A stretch of DNA of 41,383 bases, taken from NCBI GenBank assembly GCA_029880285.1, contig JAOUOS010000030.1, forward strand, positions 1 through 41,383, in the 5' to 3' direction. Origin of the DNA: Spirochaetia bacterium (GTDB taxonomy: Bacteria; Spirochaetota; Leptospiria; Turneriellales; JAOUOS01). Every line of letters begins with the position of its first letter. The stretch's first letter is position 1. The notes beneath the pieces are model-generated. The model worked only from the letters and a program-made list of their open reading frames with translations, had not been told where the DNA came from and ran no database searches. The position numbers and the translations under genes were made by a program. This document shows positions 179 through 34,736 of the stretch, piece after piece.

Positions 179-2968
179 ATGGGAACAAACAATTCTGAAA
201 CCGAAAAAGATAATAATAACAAAAACGCATGGTCAAATTCTATCATGCTGCCGAAAACAAATTTTCCCATGAAGGCAGATTTGGCCAAACGAGAACCTGA
301 TATTATTAAATATTGGGTTGATAATAAAATATACAACAGGGCCCTGGAAAAAAGAAAAAAAGAAAACGCGAAAAAATACATACTGCATGACGGGCCGCCT
401 TACGCGAACGGAAATTTTCATCTGGGCCACGCGTTAAATAAAACATTAAAAGATATTCACGTAAAATACAAATTATTAGACGGATATTACGCGCCTTATA
501 TTCCCGGGTGGGACTGTCACGGTCTTCCCATTGAATTGGCCGTAATGAAGAAACTGGCAAATAAAAAAGATAAATCTGATAAAGATCCCATTAAAGTAAG
601 AAAAGCATGCCGCGAATATGCTACTGATTTTATTAGAATTCAAGCGGAAGATCAAACCAGATTTGGTGTTTTTTGGGATAACAGCGAAGTAAAAAATTTA
701 TCAATAGAAAATCAGTTTGAGCCTGAAACTTTTTATTATACCATGAGTCCTATGTATGAGGCAAACATACTAAAAGTATTTAGAGAAATTTTTAATAAAG
801 AATTAATTTATAAAGGTGAAAGACCCATTCAATGGTGTCCATCGTGTGCTACAGCTCTGGCCGAGGCCGAAGTTGAATATAACGAGCATACCTCGCCTTC
901 TATTTATACTGCGTTTAAGGTAACAAACAAAGAAAACACATTTGTGGTCATATGGACAACAACCCCCTGGACACTGCCGGCTAATTTGGCATTAAGCTTT
1001 CACCCTGAATATAAGTATAATATTTATGAAACCGAAAAAGGAAATTTAATAATAGCCGAAGGGCTTGAAGAATCTTTTTTCGCGCAGACTGAACTTAAGT
1101 TTACAAAAAAAGAAGAAATTAAAAAAGAAGAAATAGAAAAATTAAAAGTAATACATCCGTTTATTGAAAGAGAAAGTAAAATACTATTTGGCGATCATGT
1201 TACACTTGAGGCGGGCACCGGTATTGTTCACACTGCTCCCGGACACGGGCAGGAAGACTACCAAATAGGAATAAAATACGGATTAAAACCGTTTTCGCCG
1301 GTTGATAACAGGGGCAGATTTACTGCTGATTTTGAATTAATGCAGGGCGAAAAAGTATTTAACGCCAATGAAAAGATAATTGAGCTTTTAAAAGAAAAAA
1401 AGGCTCTTTTAGGCGTTTCAGAAATTAAACATTCATACCCGCACTGCTGGCGATGCAGAGGGCCTTTGATTTTTAGAACAACACCCCAATGGTTTTTTTC
1501 AATAGAGCCTCTTCGTAAAAAAGCGCTGGAGTATACAGAAAAAGTAAAATGGATACCCGAATGGGGTAAGGCCCGTTTTTCATCGATGGTAGAAAACAGG
1601 CCAGACTGGTGTCTTTCGAGACAGCGCCATTGGGGCGTTCCCATACCGGCTTTTATCTGCGAAAACTGCGGCGAAACACATATAAATGAAGAATCATTAG
1701 ATTTTATTATTTCTCTGGTAGAAAAAAACGGAATAGAAGTATGGTTTGATAAAGAAACCAGCGAATTATTACCGGCGGGAACCAAATGTAAAAAATGTTC
1801 CCATGATAAATTTGAAAAAGAAAGAGATATTTTAGATGTATGGTTTGACAGCGGAATAAGCTGGTATGCCGTGTTAGAGAAATATAAAAAACTAGAAGTT
1901 CCCTGTGACATGTATCTTGAAGGTTCTGATCAGCATAGAGGATGGTTTCAAAGTAGTATGTGGCCGGCATTAGCCGTAAAGGGAGAAGCCCCCTATGAAA
2001 CCGTATTAACGCATGGTTATGTTTTGGATGAAAATGGCAGGGCGATGAGTAAATCTCTTGGCAATGTTATATCACCCGTGGATGATATAATACCTAAATA
2101 CGGCGCGGATATGGTAAGACTTTGGGTTGCTTCTGAAGATTATAGAACAGATAATAAAATTAGTTTTGATATGCTGGTAAGACTTTCTGACAGTTATAGA
2201 AAAATTCGAAACACTTTTAGATATATGTTGGGTAACTTAAAAGATGGTGAGGCAGTTAAGAATCTAAAAGATTCAGATATAACAGATGATATTGATAAAT
2301 GGGTTTTACATGAACTTGCCGATCTGGGAGAAAAAATAAAAAAAGCCTATGACTTAAGCGAGTTTCATCAGGTATATCACAGAACTTTGCAGTTTTGCAC
2401 GGTAACCCTTTCAAATACTTATTTTGATATTATACGCGACAGGCTTTACTGTGATGACGCGCCCAATTTAATAAAAAGCGTAAAAAGAAAATCATCATTA
2501 AAAACTCTTCAGGTTTTATTAGAACATTTAACTGTTTGGCTGGCACCTGTTTTAAGTTTTACAATGGAAGAAATTCAAAAATTTGTTGATGATTCAATCA
2601 GTATTTTTGAAAAAAACTGGCCTGACGCGTCAAAATATAAAAATGAAAAGTTAAAAGAAAAATTTAATCCTGTGTGGGAACTAAAAGAAAGCGTAAATAT
2701 AAAACTTGAAGATGCCAGAAAATCTCAAAAAATTGGTTCTTCTGTTGATGCTGTTGTTGTTATACCAAATGAAAAACTAAAAAATATTTCAAATGAAGTT
2801 AAAGAAAGTTTAGATTTTTATCTTGTAGTTTCTGAAGCAAGGTTTGAAGATGTATCTGAAATACAAATAGAAAAATCTGCGAAAGAAAAATGTCCCAGAT
2901 GCTGGCTTTACCGCGACTTAACCCCCAAAGGCGTATGTGAAAGATGTCAAGATGTTACAGCTGAATAA
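179..2968 (+). CDS. ileS: isoleucine--tRNA ligase (class I aaRS)
   Basis: The ORF is 929 aa. It has the HIGH motif 'PPYANGNFHLGHALNK', a KMSKS motif 'AMSKSLGNV', the N-terminal 'LPKTNFPMKADLAKREPDIIKYW' typical of IleS, and a C-terminal Zn-finger 'CPRCW...CERC'. The start is not certain: ATG 179 gives a short N-terminal extension compared with E. coli IleS. Confidence 0.95.
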   Translation: MGTNNSETEKDNNNKNAWSNSIMLPKTNFPMKADLAKREPDIIKYWVDNKIYNRALEKRKKENAKKYILHDGPPYANGNFHLGHALNKTLKDIHVKYKLLDGYYAPYIPGWDCHGLPIELAVMKKLANKKDKSDKDPIKVRKACREYATDFIRIQAEDQTRFGVFWDNSEVKNLSIENQFEPETFYYTMSPMYEANILKVFREIFNKELIYKGERPIQWCPSCATALAEAEVEYNEHTSPSIYTAFKVTNKENTFVVIWTTTPWTLPANLALSFHPEYKYNIYETEKGNLIIAEGLEESFFAQTELKFTKKEEIKKEEIEKLKVIHPFIERESKILFGDHVTLEAGTGIVHTAPGHGQEDYQIGIKYGLKPFSPVDNRGRFTADFELMQGEKVFNANEKIIELLKEKKALLGVSEIKHSYPHCWRCRGPLIFRTTPQWFFSIEPLRKKALEYTEKVKWIPEWGKARFSSMVENRPDWCLSRQRHWGVPIPAFICENCGETHINEESLDFIISLVEKNGIEVWFDKETSELLPAGTKCKKCSHDKFEKERDILDVWFDSGISWYAVLEKYKKLEVPCDMYLEGSDQHRGWFQSSMWPALAVKGEAPYETVLTHGYVLDENGRAMSKSLGNVISPVDDIIPKYGADMVRLWVASEDYRTDNKISFDMLVRLSDSYRKIRNTFRYMLGNLKDGEAVKNLKDSDITDDIDKWVLHELADLGEKIKKAYDLSEFHQVYHRTLQFCTVTLSNTYFDIIRDRLYCDDAPNLIKSVKRKSSLKTLQVLLEHLTVWLAPVLSFTMEEIQKFVDDSISIFEKNWPDASKYKNEKLKEKFNPVWELKESVNIKLEDARKSQKIGSSVDAVVVIPNEKLKNISNEVKESLDFYLVVSEARFEDVSEIQIEKSAKEKCPRCWLYRDLTPKGVCERCQDVTAE

Positions 2969-2971
2969 AAT

Positions 2972-4408
2972 TTAATTTAAACTGCTGTAAGAAGAATAAG
3001 GTAAAATAATTTCTAAAGATTCTTTTTTATGGTCACTTGTTAGTTTAAGTGAGCCCTTAAAAACAAAAATGATTTCTTTTATTTCGTTTAAGTATAATTC
3101 CATTTCTTTTTTTTGAAGAATATGATTAATACTGGAATCTTTATTCATAAAGTTTATTAAAACCTGATTTCTTTCTGTAATAATAGAAATTTTTAATATT
3201 TTATTATTTAATAAATGAAATATGTTATTAAGAGCAATTTTAAGAATTTTAATAATTTCAGAAGCTAGAATATTTTCAATAAACAGCAAACTTGTGTTAA
3301 AAAATAAATCACATCTGTTCTTTGTATTTTTTTCATAATCAGCGGCTATATTTTCAATAAATGTTTTTAGACTAAAATTTTCAAGCTGGTTTAATTCCAG
3401 ATTTTTTGTTATTTTTCGAATGCTTTGAATGGCAGAATTTAATAAGTTTTTTGATTCAATTATATTTTCTGGATTTAAAGTATTTTCTACTTTTTGAATT
3501 TCATCGTTTAGTTTTTCAATATCAAAGTTAATTAAAGACATAATTTGATTTAAATCATCCTGAATATTAATGGCTATTTTTTTTCTTTCCTGCTGGCGCG
3601 CGGTTTGATAATTTCTTGCCATTTGTTTAAGTTCTCTTCTTCTTTGTATAAGTTCTTTTTGAGCGTTGTGACGGCGGCTAATATTTTGAATTAGTGAAGC
3701 GATTCCAATAATGTTATTTTTCTCATCAAATAAGGGCACATTGTACCATTCACATTGAATGAAGTTTTTGCTTTTTGTAATGTTTTTATCTGTGCTTCTT
3801 AATTCACATTTTTCTTTCAGTATTTTATTAAAAAATTTATTTATTAAACTTTCGTTTATATTTGAAATTTTTGACAATGCTTTTTGGTTTATCATTTCTT
3901 CTTGGGTATATTCAAAAATATTTTCAGCCGCTTTGTTCCACCGTGTTACCTCTAAATTCAAGTTCCACTCGATAATAGCCATGGGAATATTATCAACATG
4001 AAATTGAAGTTTTTGAGCATGTTCAATTAGTGCTTTTATCCCTTTTTTTTCTCTTGTTATATCGCGGCATATTTCAATTGAGCCCGCTAATTCATTATTG
4101 TTTATAATAAAGGGATAGCCTTTAATCTCCCATATATTATTATCAGATGTTATAATTTCGCCCTGTTTTTGAGAAAGATTCTCTTTTGCCTCAATAGCAG
4201 GGCAGAATAAGCAAAAGCTGTCTCTTTGAAAAAGTATCTTATAACACTTTTGACCTATTGCCGAATCACGGTTTACTTTAAAAGAATTTTGAGCGCCTTT
4301 GTTCATCCAAATAATATTCATCTTTAAATCATGGCAAATTATAGGATCAGAAATACTGTCAAGTATATGAAAATAATCTATTTTAATGTCATTTAAATGA
4401 TTATGCAT
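2972..4408 (-). CDS. PAS-domain sensor protein with a degenerate HisKA_3/HATPase-like C-terminus (probable pseudo-histidine kinase)
   Basis: The ORF is 478 aa. The N-terminal ~250 aa have two PAS-like segments ('ICHDLKMNIIWMNKGAQ', 'IPMAIIEWNLNLEVTRWNKAAENIFEYTQEEM'). The C-terminal ~220 aa follow the NarX/DesK-type (HisKA_3) layout, but the kinase motifs are altered. 'ERKKIAINIQDDLNQ' sits where 'ERxRIARELHDxxGQ' is expected, so the phospho-acceptor His is Gln. 'KIALNNIFHLL' resembles an N-box. No DxGxG (G1) or GxGL (G2) box is present. The C-terminal 'GSLKLTSDHKKESLEIILP' matches the end of an HATPase domain. Confidence 0.6.
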   Translation of the reverse strand: MHNHLNDIKIDYFHILDSISDPIICHDLKMNIIWMNKGAQNSFKVNRDSAIGQKCYKILFQRDSFCLFCPAIEAKENLSQKQGEIITSDNNIWEIKGYPFIINNNELAGSIEICRDITREKKGIKALIEHAQKLQFHVDNIPMAIIEWNLNLEVTRWNKAAENIFEYTQEEMINQKALSKISNINESLINKFFNKILKEKCELRSTDKNITKSKNFIQCEWYNVPLFDEKNNIIGIASLIQNISRRHNAQKELIQRRRELKQMARNYQTARQQERKKIAINIQDDLNQIMSLINFDIEKLNDEIQKVENTLNPENIIESKNLLNSAIQSIRKITKNLELNQLENFSLKTFIENIAADYEKNTKNRCDLFFNTSLLFIENILASEIIKILKIALNNIFHLLNNKILKISIITERNQVLINFMNKDSSINHILQKKEMELYLNEIKEIIFVFKGSLKLTSDHKKESLEIILPYSSYSSLN

Positions 4409-4507
4409 TGAATAGGTTTGCTTTTATTTATTTAATATAAAATGCTATTAATTTTTTAATTATATAGTTTTTTAATAAAAGCGTCAAATAATATTCAAGA
4501 TAACACT

Positions 4508-5542
4508 TTATTTCGTTTTTTTAATAATATCCGTTGTAGAATATCCTTTTCGAAAAGGCAGTATAACAACTTCTCCCTTATATTTTTTTATAACAGAATA
4601 TTCAGGCAGATCTTCTTTTTTATAGTCACCGCCTTTTACATGTATGTCAGGTTTTATTTTTTTTATTATCTCGATAGGCGTGTCTTCTGAAAATGAGGTA
4701 ATAACACTCGTAAAGGGAAGGGCAGAAAGCGATAAAAGCCTGTCTTTTAAGGTATTCACCGGTCTTGATTTGCCTTTCAGCCTTTTTACGCTATCATCAG
4801 AGTTTGCGGCGACAACCAGAGCATCCCCCAGTTTTGAGGCCTGCCATAAATACTGAAGATGACCTGAATGTAAAATGTCAAAACATCCGTTTGTAAAAAC
4901 AATCTTTTTCTTTTGTTTTCTTAAATTTTGAATTGTATTTTGAAATAGTTTTTCTTTATAGGAAGAATGAATTTTTAAATTTATATCTTTTTCAAACTCT
5001 ATTTGTAAAATAAATTGAGCGGCTTCTTTAAGATCTGTAGCTATGTATTTCAAATTTTTAGGTTCTTTTAATTTTTTTTCTGCGTCTGAGGGATATACTA
5101 AAATACCATCGATATTAAACGGTTCAGCTGCTTTTATATCCCTTAATTTATCACCAATTATGTAACTTCTCGAAAGACTAAATTTTAATTCTTTTTGAGC
5201 CTGTTTAATAAGCCCGGGTTTTGGCTTGCGGCATTCACAGTTATCTTCATCTGTATGCGGACAAAAATAAATCTTTTTTATTGTAATATTTTCTTTTTTT
5301 AAGAGTTCTAATAGTCTATTGTTAACAGCTTTAAGTTGTTTTAAAGTGATAAGTTTTCTGCTAATTCCAGACTGATTGGTTATTATAGCAAATTGAAAAT
5401 CGAATTTTTTTAGTAAATTTAATGCTTCTGTTACACCCGGTTTTAGTTTTAAATCTTTTGGATTATTTATATAACCCGGATCAAAATTTAATGTGTTGTC
5501 CCTATCTAATAGTACAAATCTAATTTTTTCATTAGCTGGCAT
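4508..5542 (-). CDS. bifunctional D-glycero-D-manno-heptose 1,7-bisphosphate phosphatase (GmhB-like HAD) / heptose-1-phosphate adenylyltransferase (HldE domain II / RfaE-II-like)
   Basis: The N-terminal half has 'VLLDRDNTLN' (HAD DxD), 'ITNQSGISR' and the Zn motif 'CPHxxxxxCxCRKP' typical of GmhB. The C-terminal ~135 aa, 'IVFTNGCFDILHSGHLQYL...SRPVNTLKDR...VKGGDY...STTDIIKK', align closely with the HldE adenylyltransferase domain (HxGH cytidylyltransferase fold). It overlaps the upstream kinase ORF by 11 nt. Confidence 0.8.
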   Translation of the reverse strand: MPANEKIRFVLLDRDNTLNFDPGYINNPKDLKLKPGVTEALNLLKKFDFQFAIITNQSGISRKLITLKQLKAVNNRLLELLKKENITIKKIYFCPHTDEDNCECRKPKPGLIKQAQKELKFSLSRSYIIGDKLRDIKAAEPFNIDGILVYPSDAEKKLKEPKNLKYIATDLKEAAQFILQIEFEKDINLKIHSSYKEKLFQNTIQNLRKQKKKIVFTNGCFDILHSGHLQYLWQASKLGDALVVAANSDDSVKRLKGKSRPVNTLKDRLLSLSALPFTSVITSFSEDTPIEIIKKIKPDIHVKGGDYKKEDLPEYSVIKKYKGEVVILPFRKGYSTTDIIKKTK

Positions 5543-6353
5543 AATATTTAGCGGAATTTAAAGCTGTATGATAGTAATTTATTCCAAATAAATTTGCATG
5601 TACCAAAAGGGGATATATCTGGTATAGCTTTTTTATATCTTTGTATATTTCGCAAATAGAATGAATTTCTTGGTAAGCCGAATAAAATGCAGAATCAAAT
5701 GCGCCAAATAATTCAGTAAAGGCTAATTCTATTAAAGCGTCACCATAATAAACAGCGGGATCTATAAATATAGGACCTTTATCGCTAAAATATAAGTTTC
5801 CGCTCCATAGATCACCATGCAGTAAAGAAGGTTTTGGTTTATGAGTTAATAAAACCGGCAGTTTTTCAAATAATTTAGACCAAATATTTAGTTCGTTATT
5901 GGTTAATTTATGGGATAAATTCCATAAATTTAGCTGATACTGCAGTCTATGTTTTTGATAAAATAGAATCCAGTCTTTTTCAAAATTATTAATTTGATTA
6001 AGAGAGCCAATATAGTTATTTTGAAAAAAACCAAAGTTTTCACTCGTTTTTTGGTGAAGTTTCGCTAAAAGAGTACCAGCTTCTTTATAACATGGTTTAC
6101 CAGCATTAAAATATTCTAAAAGTATTGCATCTTCATTAAATGATATGACTTTAGGCACGGGAAGATTATTTTCACGTAAATGGTTTAAACCAAAACATTC
6201 ATTTTCAAACATTTTAGTAAACCCTCCGTTGTTATTCTTTAAAAGAAATTCACCATTTAGACAGATAAGATGATAAACTTCATTTATATCACCTCCCGCT
6301 AAACGATTTTTTTTATAAATTTGACCAGTAAATTTTTCAAACGGATTTTTCAT
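5532..6353 (-). CDS. fructosamine/ketosamine-3-kinase family protein (protein-kinase-like fold)
   Basis: The ORF is 273 aa. It has the FN3K-family catalytic-loop motif 'LLHGDLWSGNLYF', 'IFIDPAVYYGD', and an N-terminal nucleotide-binding region. It overlaps the neighbouring ORF at both ends (17 nt upstream, 11 nt downstream), which suggests an operon. Confidence 0.7.
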   Translation of the reverse strand: MKNPFEKFTGQIYKKNRLAGGDINEVYHLICLNGEFLLKNNNGGFTKMFENECFGLNHLRENNLPVPKVISFNEDAILLEYFNAGKPCYKEAGTLLAKLHQKTSENFGFFQNNYIGSLNQINNFEKDWILFYQKHRLQYQLNLWNLSHKLTNNELNIWSKLFEKLPVLLTHKPKPSLLHGDLWSGNLYFSDKGPIFIDPAVYYGDALIELAFTELFGAFDSAFYSAYQEIHSICEIYKDIKKLYQIYPLLVHANLFGINYYHTALNSAKYYAS

Positions 6354-6564
6354 CCATATTTATTTGACCTAATGAATCAATTATCTTTTTTTTTATAGGG
6401 TGATTTTGTGAATTATAAGATGCATGACTTATACGCATTAAATTACGATATAAAGCTAAATGATCAGATATGCAATTTTTACAATATCCTTTTTGAAATA
6501 CCTGACTTACCATGTTATGGCATTTCTGGCACATATGAAATCGCGCCTGTTTTTTTGAGGGCAT
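6337..6564 (-). CDS. small zinc-ribbon protein (hypothetical)
   Basis: The ORF is 75 aa. It has two CxxC pairs 12 aa apart ('CQKC'...'CKNC'). Its stop overlaps the start of the kinase gene. The overlapping + strand ORF 6408..6629 looks non-coding. Confidence 0.4.
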   Translation of the reverse strand: MPSKKQARFHMCQKCHNMVSQVFQKGYCKNCISDHLALYRNLMRISHASYNSQNHPIKKKIIDSLGQINMDEKSV

Positions 6565-6890
6565 GTTATTTAATTAAGTCCACACAATTATATTTGTATA
6601 TATATCTAAAAATAAATACAATATTCTAATAAAATTATTAAAATATAGGTGGGATAAAATGTAAAGAAAAGTCTGTACGTCAAAAGAGTTAGAATATTTT
6701 TTGAAAAAATAATAAATTTTATTTAACGAAAACGGATGTCATGAGTTAATATACAAAGACATTAGTATTTATAAAATAATAACTTTGGCAGAATATAATG
6801 TATTTAAAGATTTTTTAATAAAATAATTTATCTTAAAAAAGAATTAATAATCTAAATAAATTATATAAAACCGCCAAAGTTATTTTAACA

Positions 6891-7247
6891 TCAAGCTGCT
6901 TCTTTTTGTCCTTCAAAATTAAGATCAGAAACAGCAAGGGTTTCAGCAGATATATGAAATCTTGATTTTTTGTTTTGATTTTTATCTACCCAGCGGCTTT
7001 GAACTAAAGCCCCGTTTATCACAACTTCAAGGCCTTTTTTTAATATGGAATGAAAAACTTCGGCAAGTTTTTCCCATACTTCTACATGAATAAAGTTGGC
7101 ATGCGAACCGTCTTTATCTGTTGTCTGCCTTGTGTAATACATCAAATTAAAGGTTAAAAACTTTTTACCTGTGGTTGTTTCTTTTACCTCAGGATCGGTA
7201 ACAATTCTGCCTTTTATTTGATTTATGTTCATACTATTTGGGGTCAT
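6891..7247 (-). CDS. ssb: single-stranded DNA-binding protein (short, OB-fold)
   Basis: The ORF is 118 aa. It starts 'MNINQIKGRIVTDPEVKETTTGKKFLTFNL...' like an SSB OB-fold and carries 'VINGALVQSRWVDKNQNKKSRFHISAETL'. A GAGGA Shine-Dalgarno lies 6 nt before ATG 7247. Confidence 0.8.
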   Translation of the reverse strand: MTPNSMNINQIKGRIVTDPEVKETTTGKKFLTFNLMYYTRQTTDKDGSHANFIHVEVWEKLAEVFHSILKKGLEVVINGALVQSRWVDKNQNKKSRFHISAETLAVSDLNFEGQKEAA

Positions 7248-7261
7248 ATTATCCTCATTTT

Positions 7262-7386
7262 CACTATTTAATTTTTTTAATAAGAAAAGTTTATTAACTT
7301 TACTTAATTTAGTAATACCCCCAAAAATTAATTATATACCGCTTTTTTTAATTTTTTTTTTAAATTACTAAAAAAATTAAATAGTG
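7262..7386. repeat. 18-bp near-perfect inverted repeat pair (cactatttaattttttta ... taaaaaaattaaatagtg) enclosing ~90 bp
   Basis: Read directly from the sequence. The left arm lies ~15 bp upstream of the ssb start codon. The right arm lies in the ssb/mazG divergent intergenic region. Confidence 0.5.
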
Positions 7387-7637
7387 AAAATGATTGAAAA
7401 CATTAAATATGTATAATGAGATACTTGAAATAGAAAAAGCTCAACTAATGTTAAAAAAAAATTATAGCAATTTAAATTATTGATAAACAGGATTTTTTAT
7501 GATTATTTTTTTCTAAATATCTTGTTATCTTGTTAAAAAATTTATCTTAAATGCCTGTCTCAATCTGGATTCACGTAAGATTGAATATTGATAATATAAA
7601 AATCTTGCCGCATTGTCTTTTAAATAAATGGTAACTG

Positions 7638-8525
7638 ATGAAAAAACCACCGTCTTTAGATAAACCAATAGAAAGTCTTAAAAAAATTGCCAGAGATTTA
7701 CGCGATAAAACACATGGTTGTCCCTGGGATATGAATCAGACCCATGATAGTGTAGTAAAAAATTTAATAGAAGAGACATATGAAGTTGTAGATGCGATTG
7801 AAAAATTAAATGAGAAAGACATAAATACTTATAATGATCTGAAAGAAGAGCTAGGTGACTTGTTTTTTCAAATAGTTTTTCATGCCCAGCTTGCTGAAGA
7901 AAGGGGAATGTTTAATCTTGAAGATACCGCCCTTTATGTTTCAGAAAAATTAATATTTAGGCATCCTCATGTATATGGCGAAAACGTGCAAGTAGAAGGT
8001 GAAAAGGATGTTCTGAAAAACTGGGAAAAGTTAAAGCGTGAAGAAAAAAATAAAAAAAATGAAGAATTTATACATATGCTTTCTGGAATTCCCGTTCACT
8101 TGCCCGCGCTATTAAAGTCTTATCGCATAGGCCAAAAAGTAAGCCGTGTAAATTTTGACTGGCCCTCTTCAAAAGAAGGTACAAAACTGCTTAAAGAAAA
8201 AGTAATTGAAGAGCTAAATGAGTTTCTTGTTGAAATTGACGAAAATCATGAAAAATACAATCCTGAAAATCTAATTACGGCAGATAAAATAAAAGAAAAA
8301 GAAAGAGTAGAAGAAGAATTAGGAGATTTATTATTTGCAATTTCACAGCTTGCGAGACGTTATTATATTGATCCCGAAGAGGCTTTGCAAAAAGCAAATA
8401 AAAAAGTAACCTCGCGGTTCGAAAAAATGGAAACTATTTTTCAGGATAAGTTAAATAAAGGCATACATCCCAGCATTGAAGAATGGGATGAGCTTTGGAA
8501 AAAAGTTAAGAAAGAAGAGAAGTAA
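7638..8525 (+). CDS. mazG: nucleoside triphosphate pyrophosphohydrolase MazG (tandem MazG domains)
   Basis: The ORF is 295 aa. It has 'HGCPWDMNQTHDSVVKNLIEETYEVVDAIE' and 'ELGDLFFQIVFHAQLAEE', with a second 'EEELGDLLFAISQLARRY' repeat. Confidence 0.85.
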   Translation: MKKPPSLDKPIESLKKIARDLRDKTHGCPWDMNQTHDSVVKNLIEETYEVVDAIEKLNEKDINTYNDLKEELGDLFFQIVFHAQLAEERGMFNLEDTALYVSEKLIFRHPHVYGENVQVEGEKDVLKNWEKLKREEKNKKNEEFIHMLSGIPVHLPALLKSYRIGQKVSRVNFDWPSSKEGTKLLKEKVIEELNEFLVEIDENHEKYNPENLITADKIKEKERVEEELGDLLFAISQLARRYYIDPEEALQKANKKVTSRFEKMETIFQDKLNKGIHPSIEEWDELWKKVKKEEK

Positions 8526-21264: not shown

Positions 21265-21711
21265 ATGAAAAAATTTAAATTTAAGCTGGAACCGTTTTTA
21301 AAACTTAAAAAATTAGAAGAAAAAAATAAAATGGTAGAACTTTCAAAAGTAGCTCAAGAAGCAGAAAACCAGCAGATAGAAATAAATAATTATTATGAAA
21401 AATCAGGAATATTGCTTTCTGAAGAAGCTATAAAAATGCGAGAGGGTATATTTGACTTATCATATCAAATTATAATGCAGAATTATTTTTATAATATGAA
21501 GAAAAGAAAAGAAATCGCAGAAAGAAAAATGTTAGAAATTGAAATGAGATTAAAAAAGAAACAAGATGAAATGATTATTGCAAGAAAAAATCGCAGAGTA
21601 ATAGAAATAATTAAAGAAAAAAAGTGGGAAAATTACTGTTATGAAACGGGTCGAGAAGAGATACAATTGTTGGATGAACAATATAATAGAAAGAAAGTAA
21701 GACTTTCATAA
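21265..21711 (+). CDS. fliJ: flagellar export chaperone FliJ
   Basis: The ORF is 148 aa and all coiled coil. It starts 'MKKFKFKLEPFLKLKKLEE' and lies immediately after fliI. Confidence 0.6.
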   Translation: MKKFKFKLEPFLKLKKLEEKNKMVELSKVAQEAENQQIEINNYYEKSGILLSEEAIKMREGIFDLSYQIIMQNYFYNMKKRKEIAERKMLEIEMRLKKKQDEMIIARKNRRVIEIIKEKKWENYCYETGREEIQLLDEQYNRKKVRLS

Positions 21712-22623: not shown

Positions 22624-24501
22624 ATGAACAATGATTTTTTAAAAAAAGCATCTGCTAATTTAAATTATCTTGAAAAAGAAAATTGTTTGTATTATGACAC
22701 AAATTATGATATCAAAAATAAAATTATAAATATAAAATCATTTTCTGGGAATATTGAAAATGAAAATCATTTTACTTTTCAAAAAAATAATGTATGGTAT
22801 CACTCAAGAAAAGACCCCTATAGAGAAGCAAAGAGGCAGTTGCATGGTATAATTGATAAAAATAAAAATACAAAGCATTTAATATTAATAGGCGCTGGTG
22901 CCGGATATATAATACATGAGGCATTTTTAAATAATGATATAGAATCAATACTTTTAATAGAACCAGATTTAGAAGTGCTGGTATACTTATTAAATTTAGT
23001 AATTATTCAAGAAATAATTAAAGAAAAAAAATTATATATATATTTTCCTGAGAACATAAATATTATAAATTTAGAACCCATATTACCTTTTATTAAAGGC
23101 AAAAAAGTGGAAACTATATCAATTTTTACTCATCCAGCATCTTATCAGGCTTATTCAAGTTTATATACAAAAGTACAAGATAAGATGGCCAATTTAATTG
23201 AAAAAAGAGCCGTAAATCAGGCAACTTTAATTAAATTTCAAGATATATGGAACAAAAATATAAGTTTAAATATTAAAGAAATAATTTTAGGCGAAAAATT
23301 AATAAACATAACGAGTAAAATCAAAACAGAAAATATTGTAATCGCCGGGGCGGGTCCATCATTGTCTGAAAGTTATGAAGAGTTAAAAAAATATAGAAGT
23401 AATTTTTTATTAATAGCAGCAGATACGGCTTATATTCCATTAATTAAAAATAATATTATTCCTGATATTGTTATAGCCGCTGATCCTCAGTGGTTAAATC
23501 ATTATTATGTATTATCAAAAGAAGTAAAAAAGTCAATTTGGATATTAGATCCGGTTGTTTGTCATGTGATACCTCATTTTCTAATAGCCAATGGGTGTAC
23601 GATGATATGGTGGGATAATCCATTTTATATAGATCAAATAATAAGAAATCATTATGGCGATAGAGGTGAAATTGCACACGGAGGTTCAGTAACAACAAAT
23701 GCCTTTGATTTAGCGGTTAAATTTAAGGCAAGAAATATTATATTAACGGGACAAGATCTATCTTTTTCTAATAAAACCGCCCATGTAAAAGGATCCGTTC
23801 TTGAAAATATGATATATTATAAAATGAATAAATATAAAACAATAGAAAATCATAATTTAAAGCAGATGAAGGCCTTACCGGCATTAAAGGTAACATCAAT
23901 AAAAGATAATAATATTTTTACAAACGCTAAATTAAAGGTTTTTATTGAATGGTTTGAAAATCAAGCAAAAATATATAATAGCGGGGACAATATAATAAAT
24001 TTATATAACGCCACAAAAAATGGTGTTAAATTAAAGGGTTTTATTTATAAAGATATATCTGAGATATTTACAAATGATAATGAAAGATTAAAAGTAAATT
24101 TAGATATAAATAAAGAAAATGTAATACATGAAAATTTAGAATTGAAAATAAAAAATAAATTAGAATTAATATTATTTGATTTTAATATGCTTGAAAAATT
24201 ATATATTGAAAATATAAAAATGTTATTTGAAGCAAAAAGAAATCCTGTAAAAGAAAAGATAAAATCTTTAATTTCTAAAATAACAGCTAATGATGAAAAA
24301 ATAAAAAAATATAACGAGGCCAACCAGATACTTTCTATAGGGGCTCAGCATACAATTCTTGAAATTACAGAGGGATCCAATTCTGCTTTTAATGATGATG
24401 GCACCATTTTTTATAAGGCAATGCTTAAAACTTGTAAAAGAACAAGATATTTATTTAAAAAAATGATTCATATATTATCATTTATGCATGTTCCAGGTTA
24501 A
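22624..24501 (+). CDS. Maf-like motility accessory factor (DUF115 / MptE-like domain); putative flagellin nonulosonic-acid glycosyltransferase
   Basis: The ORF is 625 aa, which is the usual Maf size. Its central 'NIVIAGAGPSLSESYEELKKYRSNFLLIAADTAYIPLIKNNIIPDIVIAADPQ' matches the DUF115 G-x-GPSL...PD...D signature. It lies directly downstream of the flagellar block. Confidence 0.6.
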   Translation: MNNDFLKKASANLNYLEKENCLYYDTNYDIKNKIINIKSFSGNIENENHFTFQKNNVWYHSRKDPYREAKRQLHGIIDKNKNTKHLILIGAGAGYIIHEAFLNNDIESILLIEPDLEVLVYLLNLVIIQEIIKEKKLYIYFPENINIINLEPILPFIKGKKVETISIFTHPASYQAYSSLYTKVQDKMANLIEKRAVNQATLIKFQDIWNKNISLNIKEIILGEKLINITSKIKTENIVIAGAGPSLSESYEELKKYRSNFLLIAADTAYIPLIKNNIIPDIVIAADPQWLNHYYVLSKEVKKSIWILDPVVCHVIPHFLIANGCTMIWWDNPFYIDQIIRNHYGDRGEIAHGGSVTTNAFDLAVKFKARNIILTGQDLSFSNKTAHVKGSVLENMIYYKMNKYKTIENHNLKQMKALPALKVTSIKDNNIFTNAKLKVFIEWFENQAKIYNSGDNIINLYNATKNGVKLKGFIYKDISEIFTNDNERLKVNLDINKENVIHENLELKIKNKLELILFDFNMLEKLYIENIKMLFEAKRNPVKEKIKSLISKITANDEKIKKYNEANQILSIGAQHTILEITEGSNSAFNDDGTIFYKAMLKTCKRTRYLFKKMIHILSFMHVPG

Positions 24502-27842: not shown

Positions 27843-29501
27843 CTAAAAAAGAATATTTATACCGCCATAACCTTTTATACCAGATGTATGATAGGGAGGC
27901 ATTAGAATATAATTTTGGTTTAGCAAATTTTCGCCTTTTATAAAAAAATTAACAGTAGGATTAATTTCTTTTGTAATAATTAAATTTAATAATGTGTAAG
28001 GTTTAAGCCATGTTTCTGATGTAGTAAAGGCTTTTCTTTTTCCCATAAAAGTTAATTCTAAACTAAATTCCCATGTTCCCGGTCTGAAACTGGATTTTAA
28101 AAAAGAAGCTAAATTTGGTTTTAAATATAGGTTATCAAGATAATAAAATCCCGTAATACCTGTTGAATAAAAAAGATCAGAGCCTAAATTTTGCTCTAAT
28201 TCTAAAGTACCATAAACTTGGCGCAGTACTTTATCATTAAATAAATAAATGCCGTCTAACTGGTATGAAAACTCAAAAAAATGATAATAATATTCATATC
28301 CTGCTTCAATATTCAATGAAGCATTCTTAGAAACAGGAATTCTGTTTTTAAGAGATACTTTATACATATCTTCAGGATTTTCATAGGAAAATAGAGCGGA
28401 ATAAGGAGTGTTAAGAAAAGAATTATAAAACAAAGGAATTTTTGCCTCTCGCTCAAATAAAAGTTTAGAATGCCATTTTCCCCAAAAACTATCTAATACA
28501 AAATAAGGACCAAATACCGATTTCATATCTGCGGCAAAAAAAGATTTGAATCCGGCGGTTATGTTTATTTCCCAAAGAGTTTTATCTTCGCCTATATAAT
28601 TTCTATAAATAGGAAAAATATCCGATACAAAAATTTTCCCGCTACGATATATTTTTTTAGTGTCGCTATAATGAGAATTTAGCTCACCATACCAAAAATT
28701 ACTTAAAACGCTTAAAGAGTTTCTTCTGCCAAAAATATATTGCCAGGATGCCTGCAATTTGCCTTCAGTATAAGAAGAAGAAGATTTAGGCAGAGTTTTT
28801 TCTTCAAGATCAGAGCTGATATAAACTCCATAGAGAGAAATATTTAATTTTTGTGCCTCACTTGGGCGAAATTGATTTTGAACTTCAATATATCCGCCTC
28901 TTTTGAATTGTTTTGAGTATAAACTCGAATTTTGCAGTCCTCGAATATCGTCAATATAATTGGTTTTTAACATTAATTTATAAGCTGTATTTATATTAAA
29001 ATGGCTAACTAAATTTAAATTATCAATAGAAGTTTCAGAATCGCGGTATATAGTTTTCCCGCGGCCCTCAGAGTCTTTTTTTAATCTACCGTATTCTAAA
29101 AGATAAAGACCAAGGTCGTCTCTTTTCGTAACGTATATATCAATGCCTAAAGTAGAGTATAGTCCATATTCACTTTTTATCTGGGCTCTTTTTTCAATTT
29201 TTTTAACTCCCTGTTTTTCTTTTTTTGTAATTTGAGAAGCGTTTTCAGACCATTCGCTTATTTCAGTTTCTTCGGGATTAATAATTTTTGTGCTATCTTT
29301 AGCGGGTTGAAGAATCTTTTCATCTTCGCCTTCTACCACAATTTCTTCTTTTTCTATAACGGAATCTGAAGATTTTTCAATTTCATCATCAATTTCATCT
29401 TCAATTGTAATATTCTTTTTTTGTGGAAAAATATCGCTAGGTAATAAAAAATTAAAAAATAATAGGATTAAGAAAACATATAATGAATATGAATATTTCA
29501 T
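27843..29501 (-). CDS. putative outer-membrane beta-barrel protein with acidic N-terminal region
   Basis: The ORF is 552 aa. It has a signal peptide, then a ~90-aa Glu/Asp-rich low-complexity stretch, then a long region of alternating hydrophobic residues. It ends in '...GGINILF' with a C-terminal Phe, typical of OMPs. Confidence 0.5.
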   Translation of the reverse strand: MKYSYSLYVFLILLFFNFLLPSDIFPQKKNITIEDEIDDEIEKSSDSVIEKEEIVVEGEDEKILQPAKDSTKIINPEETEISEWSENASQITKKEKQGVKKIEKRAQIKSEYGLYSTLGIDIYVTKRDDLGLYLLEYGRLKKDSEGRGKTIYRDSETSIDNLNLVSHFNINTAYKLMLKTNYIDDIRGLQNSSLYSKQFKRGGYIEVQNQFRPSEAQKLNISLYGVYISSDLEEKTLPKSSSSYTEGKLQASWQYIFGRRNSLSVLSNFWYGELNSHYSDTKKIYRSGKIFVSDIFPIYRNYIGEDKTLWEINITAGFKSFFAADMKSVFGPYFVLDSFWGKWHSKLLFEREAKIPLFYNSFLNTPYSALFSYENPEDMYKVSLKNRIPVSKNASLNIEAGYEYYYHFFEFSYQLDGIYLFNDKVLRQVYGTLELEQNLGSDLFYSTGITGFYYLDNLYLKPNLASFLKSSFRPGTWEFSLELTFMGKRKAFTTSETWLKPYTLLNLIITKEINPTVNFFIKGENLLNQNYILMPPYHTSGIKGYGGINILF

Positions 29502-31002: not shown

Positions 31003-31485
31003 ATGAAAAAAGCAGTTTATCCGGGTAGTTTTGATCCTCTTACTAATGGACATTTAGATATTATTGAACGGTCATTAAAAATTGTAGATCATCTTGTAAT
31101 TTCAGTATTACATAATTCATCAAAAAAATCGTTATTAACACTGGAACAAAGAGTAAAATTAATAAAAGAAGTTACAAGAAATTACAAAAATGTGAGTGTT
31201 CAAACATTTTCCGGGCTTTTAGCCGATTTTTGCAGAGAAAATAAAATAAATATTGTTATGAGAGGCCTGAGGGCCGTTTCTGACTTTGATTTTGAATATG
31301 CGGTTTTTTTAATGAACAGAAACTTAAATTCTGAGCTTGAAACAATATTTTTAATGAGTAACAATGAGCATTCTTTTACTTCATCAACTATTATAAAAGA
31401 GGTTGCCTCTTATGGCGGGAATGTGGCAGACAGGGTACCCGAAGCCGTAAATAAAAAATTAAAAGAAATTTACAACAAAAAATAA
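31003..31485 (+). CDS. coaD: phosphopantetheine adenylyltransferase
   Basis: It starts 'MKKAVYPGSFDPLTNGHLDIIERS', which carries the HxGH motif. At 160 aa it is the right size. Confidence 0.9.
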   Translation: MKKAVYPGSFDPLTNGHLDIIERSLKIVDHLVISVLHNSSKKSLLTLEQRVKLIKEVTRNYKNVSVQTFSGLLADFCRENKINIVMRGLRAVSDFDFEYAVFLMNRNLNSELETIFLMSNNEHSFTSSTIIKEVASYGGNVADRVPEAVNKKLKEIYNKK

Positions 31486-33833: not shown

Positions 33834-34736
33834 ATGCAGTTACATTCTAATTTTCATAATATAGATTTATCAAACATAAAAAAATTGTTATTAGAAAAAC
33901 AAATTACTGTTGAAACTACTAATGATTTAATAAATTACTGGGAAGAGCAAATTTCTAATAAGAAAAATCTTATATTTCACAATTACTTTGATTCTTATCT
34001 TTTTTTTGAATTGATGAAGTATTCTGTAATAAAAGTAATTTTTTATGACTTTAAAAATGATAAGATTTTGTATAAATACGGTATCTTAAATGATGCCGAT
34101 GGTGAGATATTAAGTTCAGTTAAAAATGATGGTAAAAGAGATGAAAAACTTGAGAAAATGTTTTTATTTGAACATCAAAATGAGGCTTTTGGATTATGGA
34201 GAAGAAAAATAACCTCACACAATTTCGATTATTACTTTTTAGCTTTATTCCCGCAAGAACTGAATATTATCGTAAACTTAAGAGAAATTTCTCAAATATT
34301 CTTACGTTATTTTCTGCCAAGTATTTACAAGCCTGATAATCGTTTTATGCCTTTATTTGAAGATGTTAATAAAGCTATTATAGAAAAAATAAATCCTTAT
34401 TTAGAAAGTGAAAGCCCGGTTACTTTTTCTTTTTTTAAATTTGAAACATTTGATAGATATTTAGAATTTGGGGGGGAGTTCTTCGCAAAAGAAGTAATTG
34501 ATGATATTTTAAATGAGTTTTCAACAAAAATAAAAGCAACTGATAATTTTTTTGTATTATCTCCACAAAAATATCTTATCGTCTCTGTAGATTGTGAAAG
34601 TGATGTGATAAAAGACAGATTTAAAAAACTATCGTTTAAAATTAAAAGCTTAATTTTAAATTTTAATGTAAAATACTCGACATTTTACAAGCCAATCAAT
34701 CATTTGTCAGAAAAATGGAAAGAAATTTCAACATAA
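33834..34736 (+). CDS. hypothetical protein with degenerate GGDEF-like (nucleotidyl-cyclase-fold) C-terminal domain
   Basis: The ORF is 300 aa. 'FSFFKFETFDRYLEFGGEFFAKEV' aligns with 'LDIDNFKKINDNYGHLEGD' of the GGDEF protein at 30212. 'FFVLSPQKYLIVSV' sits where 'RYGGEEFLYIL' is expected, so the GG(D/E)EF motif is lost. Confidence 0.4.
   Translation: MQLHSNFHNIDLSNIKKLLLEKQITVETTNDLINYWEEQISNKKNLIFHNYFDSYLFFELMKYSVIKVIFYDFKNDKILYKYGILNDADGEILSSVKNDGKRDEKLEKMFLFEHQNEAFGLWRRKITSHNFDYYFLALFPQELNIIVNLREISQIFLRYFLPSIYKPDNRFMPLFEDVNKAIIEKINPYLESESPVTFSFFKFETFDRYLEFGGEFFAKEVIDDILNEFSTKIKATDNFFVLSPQKYLIVSVDCESDVIKDRFKKLSFKIKSLILNFNVKYSTFYKPINHLSEKWKEIST

Follow-up and report, generated by a model that had tools for sequence, protein, structure and literature searches.

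The locus described here raises the question of whether a protein of the fructosamine-3-kinase (FN3K) family, encoded beside a bifunctional heptose enzyme, could have replaced the heptose-7-phosphate kinase of ADP-heptose biosynthesis, as proposed in the original prediction made from this DNA. ADP-heptose is a precursor of the LPS core and is recognized by ALPK1 as a potent agonist of innate immunity, and the range of enzymes involved in its formation is therefore of current interest.

Organization of the locus

An ORF check recovered all four predicted open reading frames at their predicted positions in the window (the whole stretch of 41,383 nucleotides that was analysed), all on the minus strand. 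The features of the locus are the following:

6860-6888, minus strand: promoter-like sequence ahead of the three genes (matched by consensus alone)
6337-6564, minus strand: predicted Zn-binding micro-protein, 75 aa, CxxC-x12-CxxC, first gene of the unit (ORF)
5532-6353, minus strand: FN3K-family (fructosamine/ketosamine-3-kinase) protein, 273 aa (Pfam PF03881)
4508-5542, minus strand: bifunctional GmhB-HldC fusion, 344 aa (domain models and alignment with homologs)
5003-5524, minus strand: GmhB-type HAD-IIIA phosphatase domain, residues 7-180 of the fusion (NF006506, TIGR00213, TIGR01662 and motifs)
4514-4933, minus strand: HldC (RfaE domain II) heptose-1-phosphate adenylyltransferase domain, residues 204-343 of the fusion (TIGR02199 and motifs)
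2972-4408, minus strand: PAS-PAS pseudo-histidine-kinase, 478 aa, adjacent to but outside the conserved unit (Pfam)

The micro-protein and kinase genes overlap by 17 nt and the kinase and fusion genes by 11 nt, and translation is probably coupled within the unit. The overlapping arrangement first proposed, with an FN3K-family protein bearing an HGDLWSGN motif as its only kinase, was thus recovered from the ORFs and the Pfam matches. The promoter-like site upstream (TTAAAA-17-TATAAT, 10/12 consensus matches) is weak evidence, because such sites are no commoner across the region than in shuffled sequence. A scan of positions 2900-7700 against Rfam returned no RNA family. Pfam scans of most ORFs in the 41-kb window revealed no PfkB, GHMP or SIS (GmhA) gene, and tblastn searches of its full length with HldA and GmhA queries likewise returned no PfkB kinase or GmhA gene.

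A predicted bifunctional GmhB-HldC enzyme

Domain models confirmed that a GmhB-type phosphatase domain and an adenylyltransferase domain are fused in one 344-aa protein, with the motifs of both kept. For the N-terminal domain, the best-scoring specific models are NF006506 (E = 1.2e-48, 165.1 bits, just below the 178-bit cutoff) and TIGR00213 (128.9 bits, below the cutoff of 149.6). The domain passes the general HAD-IIIA model TIGR01662 (108 bits, cutoff 44.6) as well as TIGR01656 (133 bits, cutoff 84), while the HisB-N model scores lower (96 bits, cutoff 140). GmhB enzymes are characterized by HAD motifs I-IV (DxDxT, S/T, K, DD) and by a Zn-binding loop, CxH...CxC. The window protein contains DRDNT (D13, D15, T17), NQSG (N56, S58), RKP (R105, K106), a GDxxxD motif IV (G130, D131, D135) and a Zn loop, C94-P-H...C-E-C, and most of these catalytic and Zn-loop motifs are invariant in an alignment of 16 homologs. 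Regarding genomic association, the domain is fused to HldC, and an orthologous fusion from a Micrarchaeota MAG (locus L006) lies in a gmhA-hldA operon.

The C-terminal domain passes the curated equivalog-domain model TIGR02199 (rfaE_dom_II) with 187.8 bits (cutoff 181.5), the match running from residue 204 to 343 and from position 3 to 142 of the 144-position model. It carries the nucleotidyltransferase HxGH motif (TNGCFDILHSGH) and a C-terminal FRKGYSTT, and T217, N218, G219, F221, D222, H225, G227 and H228 are invariant across the same set of 16 homologs. Judging from these motifs, the fusion looks catalytically competent: the HAD-IIIA domain would remove the 7-phosphate of heptose 1,7-bisphosphate, and the HldC domain would then adenylylate heptose 1-phosphate. 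As the didomain joins consecutive steps, it might channel heptose 1-phosphate between its active sites, and the fusion may ease hand-over of this intermediate.

This architecture is common in databases, almost all of the best 120 homologs having about 330-350 aa and the same two domains. A literature search returned nothing relevant on fused GmhB and HldC. When the GmhB domain alone was used to query metagenome contigs, seven distant stand-alone GmhB-like genes were retrieved, with no HldC, FN3K or Zn-ribbon gene nearby.

The fusion resembles HldE (RfaE) of E. coli, another didomain enzyme of the same pathway with a C-terminal cytidylyltransferase-fold adenylyltransferase, and in an alignment to the HldE model its residues 193-343 fall on positions 321-471. 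As anticipated, it is nevertheless unlike the kinase-adenylyltransferase HldE, the full-length HldE model giving 180 bits against a cutoff of 521. While the N-terminal partner in HldE is a PfkB kinase (step 2), it is here the GmhB phosphatase (step 3); the activities joined in the window protein therefore follow each other in the pathway (steps 3 and 4), unlike those joined in HldE (steps 2 and 4).

With the heptose nucleotidyltransferases (HENases) of Tang et al. 2024 (Science 385:678), the fusion shares the enzyme class and the (F/L)XXGxSTT motif (as defined in PMC11573728). Two commentaries (PMC11461863; PMC11573728) describe these HENases as monodomain, kinase/NT and isomerase/kinase/NT enzymes. 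The phosphatase/NT didomain falls outside these three types and represents a fourth architecture beside those named in the commentaries. The Arg of FRKGYSTT was considered as the STTR5 promiscuity residue and rejected, as the relevant position of (F/L)XXGRSTT is occupied here by Tyr. The fifth motif residue being Tyr and not Arg, the STTR5 hallmark is absent, from which a preference of the fusion for ATP is predicted. According to one of these commentaries, however, promiscuity does not strictly depend on the motif.

The FN3K-family kinase

The 273-aa kinase matches the Pfam model Fructosamin_kin (PF03881) with E = 4.6e-67 and 226.7 bits (gathering score 22.4). The match spans residues 11-265 of the protein and positions 18-279 of the 288-position model, and the HGDLWSGN motif occupies residues 179-186. 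In scans with Pfam and NCBIfam models it matched only Fructosamin_kin, APH and RIO1, all of the protein-kinase-like fold, with no PfkB or GHMP match. It is 100% identical to P0121, a 'fructosamine kinase family protein' of Spirochaetia bacterium, and its closest solved relatives are Arabidopsis ribulosamine 3-kinase (6oid, 2e-34) and human FN3K (9cx8, 1e-30). The family match is strong to FN3K and FN3K-RP and to the bacterial ribulosamine/erythrulosamine 3-kinases, which include T. fusca 3f7w and E. coli YniA.

The ketosamine-pocket and catalytic residues of the family have been defined from structures of human FN3K with substrate (PMC11754801). Human K41, G152, D217, W219 and D234 correspond to K39, G116, D181, W183 and D198 of the window kinase, and F252, H288, F292 and Y296 to F216, H252, F256 and Y260, all of which are conserved. 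The window kinase is identical to known FN3Ks at the catalytic Asp, the catalytic-loop Trp, the Asp that binds Mg, the His that binds the amine and the aromatic residues of the pocket. Eight of these positions (K39, D181, W183, D198, F216, H252, F256 and Y260), the amine-binding His and the aromatic pocket lining among them, are invariant in 14/14 kinases linked to a fusion, and the mapped pocket and catalytic residues are those of generic bacterial FN3Ks. Unlike 6oid, the window kinase lacks the redox-active P-loop Cys (AGGDIN here, GGGCIN in 6oid) and, unlike known FN3Ks, its gene lies in the window's clade within an operon containing a heptose enzyme.

Phylogenetic analysis gave the clade of linked kinases a stem branch of 0.001, versus a median internal branch of 0.02, and this clade also takes in the unlinked FN3Ks of Turneriella-type genomes. 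Only seven positions are clade-specific, none of them basic, and five of the seven are common to both unlinked FN3Ks. Mean identity of the linked kinases to generic FN3Ks, a set including Listeria and Halobacillus, is about 37.5%; to our knowledge, these two Gram-positive genera have no ADP-heptose pathway. The best reading is that the window kinase is an ordinary FN3K-family ketosamine-3-kinase with a predicted deglycation activity, and its sequence bears no apparent sign of a new substrate.

Conservation of the gene neighborhood

A profile search of genome contigs with the fusion alignment, among whose listed matches stand-alone HldC and HldE from unrelated phyla predominated, supplied locus L006, a Leptospiraceae MAG locus (L013) and a background set of HldC loci. 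The FN3K gene followed by the fusion gene is kept in seven distinct spirochaete loci with mostly different flanking genes, and the lengths of contigs bearing homologs of the two proteins agree in a way that suggests about 13 further contigs with the pair. In most loci the two genes overlap or lie less than 15 nt apart; in L090 they remain adjacent with a 138-nt spacer. A survey for a conserved neighborhood, suggested with the original prediction, thus found the FN3K and Zn-ribbon genes beside the fusion in related genomes, and the cluster is therefore no chance juxtaposition. None of 80 HldC loci from other bacteria has an adjoining FN3K gene, and the association is therefore clade-specific and not random. 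Neither a PfkB kinase nor a GmhA gene was found within 6-10 kb of the fusion in nine spirochaete loci.

In Turneriella-type genomes, the micro-protein and fusion genes are together and the FN3K gene lies elsewhere, far apart. The context of unlinked FN3K genes is a housekeeping one, IspH-TPR-GyrA-x-FN3K-GDPD-PGI. In the linked locus L088, IspH-TPR is likewise found upstream of FN3K, which suggests one ancestral relocation. A 3,473-bp contig considered as a candidate for linkage of hldA to the fusion (fusion homolog P0034 and HldA homolog P0344 being on contigs of this length) was rejected, as it carries the FN3K-fusion pair instead, the apparent link to hldA being coincidental.

Two loci are particularly informative for comparison. 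The Micrarchaeota fusion of L006 has the same two domains (38% identity over residues 8-344) and, as in the window, an overlapping upstream kinase gene. Unlike the window unit, its kinase is of the PfkB type (TIGR02198, E = 7.5e-81), gmhA is present (TIGR00441, 215.6 bits, above cutoff) and there is neither an FN3K gene nor a Zn-ribbon ORF. The order in this operon is gmhA, PfkB kinase, fusion, with overlapping genes, and the FN3K gene of the window unit occupies exactly the position of this PfkB kinase. Closer to the window in taxonomy, L013 encodes stand-alone HldA and HldC, the latter 54% identical to the HldC domain of the fusion. There and in Leptospira, hldA (PfkB) directly precedes and overlaps hldC, whereas an FN3K-family gene precedes the GmhB-HldC fusion in the window.

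Judging from the best 120 relatives of a Leptospiraceae HldA, every Leptospira has a stand-alone HldA and many Leptospiraceae MAGs do, and the canonical kinase of the lineage is therefore of the PfkB type. None of these 120 relatives, all from Leptospira or Leptospiraceae with at least 49% identity, is on a contig with the length of a fusion-bearing one, the 4.84-, 3.90- and 2.13-Mb contigs included; as the relatives compared end at 49% identity, this is a weak negative. Of 74 unrelated HldC loci, 41 have no PfkB kinase gene closer than 200 nt to HldC, and in 37 none was detected in the locus; an unlinked kinase is therefore normal.

Functional interpretation

The explanation that we favor, with moderate confidence in it as a whole, is that the three genes form one operon of an uncultured Leptospirales-related spirochaete, in which a deglycation FN3K would be co-transcribed with a bifunctional ADP-heptose enzyme, HldA and GmhA presumably being encoded elsewhere. 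The 273-aa kinase would act in protein or metabolite deglycation and not as the anomeric kinase of the pathway. Genes for GmhA and for a heptose-7-phosphate kinase of the PfkB type (HldA) are predicted at other sites of the genome, as in many bacteria. The conservation of the pair hints at a functional link for which this explanation does not account, and a literature search joining fructosamine kinase with heptose returned nothing relevant.

Such a link would be provided if the FN3K-family kinase had displaced the PfkB HldA in the anomeric phosphorylation of heptose 7-phosphate, forming with the fusion and the zinc micro-protein a compact alternative ADP-heptose module. Sugar kinases of the protein-kinase-like fold acting at the anomeric position exist elsewhere (MtnK, NahK, AmgK and maltokinase), and the tight coupling of the pair in seven loci with mostly different flanks, its absence from the 80 HldC loci of other bacteria, the location of the kinase gene at the place of hldA in L006 and the lack of PfkB or GmhA genes within 6-10 kb of any spirochaete fusion locus are all in line with this proposal. 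The active site argues otherwise: the mapped ketosamine-pocket residues, including the amine-binding His and the aromatic lining, are invariant, no clade-specific Arg or Lys is available to bind the 7-phosphate, and a sugar phosphate would be a poor fit for the FN3K substrate pocket, whose charge is described as negative (PMC11754801). Furthermore, the stem branch shows no acceleration, the few clade-specific residues are common to FN3Ks unlinked to the fusion, the two genes are separate in Turneriella-type genomes, the cluster contains no gmhA, and in L006 the fusion stands beside a canonical PfkB kinase and GmhA. The kinase-replacement proposal of the original prediction is thus disfavored on the available sequences, and we regard it as quite improbable.

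Another possible link is a two-step deglycation, in which the HAD domain of the fusion would strip ketosamine phosphates of their terminal phosphate and thereby produce the substrate of the ketosamine-3-kinase. The ketosamine phosphates in question would stem from glycation of amines by sugar phosphates. Conservation of the pair and the intact ketosamine pocket are compatible with this proposal, and the active site of GmhB-type HAD-IIIA enzymes is open, with a minimal cap. It also has an analogy in the pairing of FN3K homologs with low-molecular-weight phosphatases in other bacteria: Gemayel and co-workers reportedly noted in 2007 that such a phosphatase, with ribulosamine-5-phosphatase activity, often precedes bacterial FN3K homologs. 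Both PMC5270733 and PMC13223202 refer to their article (Gemayel et al., 2007; FEBS J 274:4360). Against it, the phosphatase scores best on GmhB models and is fused to an equivalog-level HldC, which already explains its presence, and no phosphatase gene adjoins the generic FN3K gene of Listeria grayi. In E. coli, yniA and the HAD phosphatase gene hxpB are near each other with an opposite-strand gene between them; they are not co-oriented neighbors and therefore provide no real support for an FN3K-HAD link. In addition, bacterial FN3K homologs reportedly prefer a ribulosamine-type C-3 stereochemistry, which heptose-derived Amadori products would lack. We likewise give this coupling little chance.

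A third view denies any functional link, the adjacency reflecting common descent in one clade where a shared promoter and overlapping genes would make rearrangement deleterious. It overlaps with the co-transcription of a deglycation kinase favored above and differs only by denying a selective reason for the linkage. The pair is restricted to one spirochaete clade (0/80 HldC loci elsewhere), its members are apart in Turneriella-type relatives, and the IspH-TPR genes of L088 suggest a single relocation, all as expected from descent. The flanks have nonetheless been shuffled in most loci with the pair intact, and the genes of L090 are adjacent despite their 138-nt spacer. We consider this view unlikely. 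A functional FN3K-fusion link would tie glycation repair to the synthesis of sugar nucleotides or, with lower probability, point to a heptose kinase of a new kind. Without such a function, the locus is a useful warning that conserved adjacency and equivalence of position to a pathway kinase do not amount to non-orthologous displacement where the active site has stayed the same.

The micro-protein and the downstream PAS protein

The first gene of the unit encodes a protein with four Cys and a conserved His, the invariant positions of its family being C12, C15, V19, Q24, C28, C31 and H47. Homologous small ORFs are found upstream of the fusion, or of the FN3K-fusion pair, in five loci (L001, L003, L005, L087 and L090). 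No Pfam or NCBIfam family was matched above threshold, the only hit being a sub-threshold one to DUF2797. An AF2 model predicts zinc knuckles and a helix in the core (residues 10-46, block-mean pLDDT 88-93), and a fold search with this model gave no match at E<1. A search of 1.84 billion proteins gave just 11 representative clusters for the family, with lengths of 52-80 aa, and this micro-protein of a conserved operon is thus found almost nowhere else. It is best explained as a zinc-binding, lineage-specific partner of the fusion.

A PAS pseudo-kinase had been noted immediately downstream on the same strand. As to its nature, this assignment holds. Only the PAS domains of the 478-aa protein reach Pfam thresholds, and its C-terminus is degenerate and kinase-like. 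There, HisKA_3 gives a sub-threshold match (E = 0.038, 15 bits versus a cutoff of 24) whose register puts Gln at the position of the phospho-accepting His (ERKKIAINIQDD), and HATPase_c gave no match even with the threshold relaxed to E<=10. This C-terminus has no homolog among solved structures, no solved histidine kinase being matched at E<=1, and it does not resemble a fragment of a genuine HisKA_3 kinase encoded in L001. The protein thus looks like a pseudo-kinase by its sequence, falling short of a sensor histidine kinase. Its association with the unit did not hold: the gene is missing downstream of the fusion in L001, L088, L089, L090 and L092, and in the window it has a promoter-like site of its own, TTGACG-17-TATAAT (11/12 consensus matches), at 4487-4459.

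Organization of the locus

The locus comprises four consecutive minus-strand ORFs, of which the first three form the unit, and the original prediction of a phosphatase-adenylyltransferase fusion was borne out by ORF positions, domain scores and conserved motifs:

6337-6564, minus strand: zinc micro-protein (Znr), 75 aa; ORF
5532-6353, minus strand: FN3K-family kinase, 273 aa; ORF and Fructosamin_kin match
4508-5542, minus strand: GmhB-HldC fusion, 344 aa; ORF and two domain matches
2972-4408, minus strand: PAS protein, 478 aa; ORF and PAS domains

From the ORF coordinates, Znr and FN3K overlap by 17 nt and FN3K and the fusion by 11 nt, and 99 nt separate the fusion from the PAS gene. The best-supported reading is that of an operon composed of a lineage-specific zinc micro-protein, an FN3K predicted to be an ordinary deglycation kinase and a fusion predicted to act as a bifunctional enzyme catalyzing steps 3 and 4 of the ADP-heptose pathway, while GmhA and a PfkB-type HldA would be expected elsewhere in the genome. 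No PfkB, GHMP or SIS-type gene was found in the 41-kb window.

The GmhB-HldC fusion

The N-terminal HAD-IIIA domain of the fusion scores best against GmhB models (NF006506, 165 bits for a cutoff of 178), and the C-terminal domain reaches 187.8 bits against TIGR02199, the heptose-1-phosphate adenylyltransferase domain of HldE, above the equivalog cutoff of 181.5. Alignment of the window fusion with 15 homologs revealed that the phosphatase motifs (DxDxT, NQSG, RKP, GDxxxD and the zinc loop C-P-H...C-x-C) and the transferase motifs (HxGH and G-x-S-T-T) are kept. This didomain is not rare but abundant in databases: a search at E<=1e-10 gave 5,713 homologs, and of the 120 best almost every one has 330-350 aa and the same two domains. 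Their sources are Leptospiraceae, Turneriella, other spirochaete MAGs, Hydrogenedentota and Patescibacteria, and the entries are automatically named, for instance 'HAD-IIIA family hydrolase' or 'heptose 1-phosphate adenylyltransferase'. In a Micrarchaeota MAG, the fusion closes an operon of overlapping genes, in which it follows gmhA and then a PfkB kinase gene; the score of this gmhA exceeds the equivalog cutoff, and the kinase aligns to rfaE_dom_I with E=7.5e-81. This operon provides direct contextual evidence that proteins of the fusion architecture act in the canonical ADP-heptose pathway and are able to work with a PfkB kinase.

Two commentaries (PMC11461863; PMC11573728) on the cross-kingdom survey of Tang et al. 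(2024) name only three architectures for the nucleotidyltransferases: alone, with a kinase, or with an isomerase and a kinase. The phosphatase fusion of the window is not among the three named in these commentaries, and no description of a phosphatase-nucleotidyltransferase fusion was found in the literature that could be reached, within which the architecture thus looks undescribed. Regarding the product, one commentary gives (F/L)XXGRSTT as the hallmark of CTP/UTP-promiscuous enzymes (PMC11573728), whereas the window motif, FRKGYSTT, is devoid of the hallmark arginine; ADP-heptose is therefore the predicted product.

In Nitrosospira and cyanobacterial loci, a GmhA-like domain forms the C-terminal end of ORFs of 560-656 aa located near HldC (L007, 5641-7593; L025, 5681-7363; L045, 5245-7215), which could represent multi-domain heptose enzymes such as those listed by Tang et al. 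(2024).

Conservation of the FN3K-fusion neighborhood

FN3K as a conserved neighbor of the fusion was confirmed within one spirochaete clade. The kinase gene immediately precedes the fusion, in the same orientation, in seven loci: the window, L001 (Leptospiraceae MAG GCA_025055765.1), L087, L088 (on a 2.13-Mb contig), L089, L090 and L092 (on an 861-kb contig). In most of them the two genes overlap or have fewer than 15 nt between them. The surroundings mostly vary from locus to locus, except that L090 and the window both have MazG-SSB upstream and that L089 has its upstream gene in common with L092. About 13 further cases are suggested by contigs of equal length in the kinase and fusion homolog lists. 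Among 80 HldC-containing loci from other bacteria, none has FN3K nearby, and in 33 a PfkB kinase is either fused to HldC or encoded no more than 200 nt away.

In the 4.84-Mb contig L005 and a second Turneriella MAG, the unlinked FN3K resides in a housekeeping context, IspH-TPR-GyrA-x-FN3K-GDPD-PGI. Since IspH-TPR is still found upstream of FN3K in the pair-bearing L088, a single relocation event of the kinase gene is suggested. In Turneriella L003 and in L005, the genes ahead of the fusion are instead the small zinc ORF and, before it, one for a DegT aminotransferase.

The aminotransferase belongs to the DegT/DnrJ/EryC1 sugar aminotransferases (L003, 8477-9601; L005, 8441-9610) and lies just upstream of the micro-protein and the fusion, which hints that nucleotide-heptose may feed a modified glycan in Turneriella-type genomes. 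L090 (metagenome ERZ27296366, k141_1268058, 4031-8019) represents a second organism in the metagenome of the window, with the order MazG-SSB-small ORF-FN3K-fusion found at window 4508-8525; its kinase is 57% identical to that of the window and is separated from the fusion by 138 nt.

Function of the FN3K-family kinase

The kinase matches Fructosamin_kin with E=4.6e-67. In human FN3K with a substrate analogue, Asp217 is catalytic, Trp219 belongs to the catalytic loop, Asp234 binds Mg, His288 hydrogen-bonds the amine nitrogen marking the ketosamine, and Phe252, Phe292 and Tyr296 form an aromatic lining (PMC11754801). The equivalent residues of the window kinase are D181, W183, D198, H252, F216, F256 and Y260, respectively, and all seven are invariant in the 14 pair-linked kinases compared and identical in generic bacterial FN3Ks. 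The mean identity between the pair-linked kinases and this generic set, which includes Listeria and Halobacillus, is ~37.5%. These Gram-positive genera are not known to have an ADP-heptose pathway. In a neighbor-joining tree of 117 kinase homologs, the pair-linked kinases belong to a spirochaete clade of 44 members that also contains the unlinked Turneriella-type FN3Ks, with a stem branch of 0.001 versus a median internal branch of 0.02. This clade has seven specific positions, none of them basic and five common to both unlinked kinases.

The original prediction proposed that this kinase could replace the heptose kinase, an idea that is attractive on position alone. No canonical heptose kinase was found in the 6-10 kb around the fusion in nine spirochaete loci. 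However, had the enzyme moved from neutral or cationic ketosamines to sugar phosphates, its pocket should bear traces of the change, and none is seen in the pair-linked kinases, so that the evidence says, at the level of sequence, that the kinase kept its function. With an unchanged active site, a short stem branch and no clade-specific basic residue, the replacement is disfavored. Another, unlikely possibility is a joint role of the kinase and the phosphatase domain in clearing adducts formed when sugar phosphates cause glycation, similar to the FN3K/LMW-phosphatase pairing reportedly described by Gemayel in 2007. As for the HldA expected elsewhere if the kinase is an ordinary deglycation enzyme, among the matches listed to Leptospiraceae HldA, the stand-alone form is present throughout Leptospira and frequent in Leptospiraceae MAGs, and one Leptospiraceae MAG carries hldA-hldC.

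In E. coli K-12 (NC_000913.3, 1807796-1810048), the FN3K homolog yniA and the HAD sugar phosphatase gene hxpB lie 0.7 kb apart, with yniB on the opposite strand between them and pfkB two genes upstream; this proximity is probably coincidental.

The zinc micro-protein and the PAS protein

The small ORFs share the core F-x-x-C-x-x-C-x3-V-x4-Q-x-G-Y-C-x-x-C. Homologs of the window ORF occur in five other loci, upstream of FN3K-fusion (L001, L087 and L090, as in the window) or directly upstream of the fusion (L003 and L005), and among the loci compared the ORF is absent from L088, L089 and L092. Its distribution thus follows that of the fusion, not that of the kinase. Only 11 representative clusters were found among 1.84 billion proteins, all of 52-80 aa, with four cysteines and one histidine invariant. 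The AlphaFold model, confident for residues 10-46, predicts zinc knuckles and a helix, and the fold search returned no significant structural neighbor. Gene callers start the ORF at Met11, giving 65 aa (L086, P0361). Homologs conserve [KE]-Q-x-x-F-[HY]-x-C upstream of this residue (window 6535-6564), which makes the 75-aa start at 6564 more likely.

A fusion sub-clade (P0020, P0042 and P0055) lacks the GmhB zinc-loop ligands, C-P-D...S-x-C/N replacing C-P-H...C-x-C. P0042 (L088, 10001-11026), the only one with a locus examined, also lacks the upstream Zn-ribbon ORF, as do L089 and L092, whose fusions are outside the zinc-loop alignment; a link between both losses is possible.

Only PAS domains of the PAS protein pass Pfam thresholds. 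Its C-terminal half has a sub-threshold HisKA_3 match, with glutamine at the phospho-accepting histidine position, and no HATPase_c was found there, making its earlier designation as a pseudo-kinase plausible. The gene is not part of the unit: it was not found beside the fusion in any relative examined, and the 99-nt gap contains a near-consensus sigma-70-like site (4459-4487, minus strand; TTGACG-17-TATAAT, 11/12), no terminator-like hairpin being found in this gap.

Other genes of the window

Beyond this locus, the window consists of ordinary spirochaete-like chromosomal DNA, with ileS, ssb, mazG, mlaEFD and flgB-fliI flagellar genes. Downstream of the flgB-fliI cluster, a Maf/MptE-like protein (22624-24501), from a family associated with flagellin glycosylation, represents another possible glycan-related function. 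Three ORFs have no Pfam match: 27843-29501 (minus strand, 552 aa), 21265-21711 (plus strand, 148 aa) and 33834-34736 (plus strand, 300 aa), the latter flanked by two radical-SAM genes. A second cytidylyltransferase-fold gene (31003-31485, 160 aa; PF01467, E=2.3e-22), probably CoaD judging by its size, is unrelated to the heptose unit.
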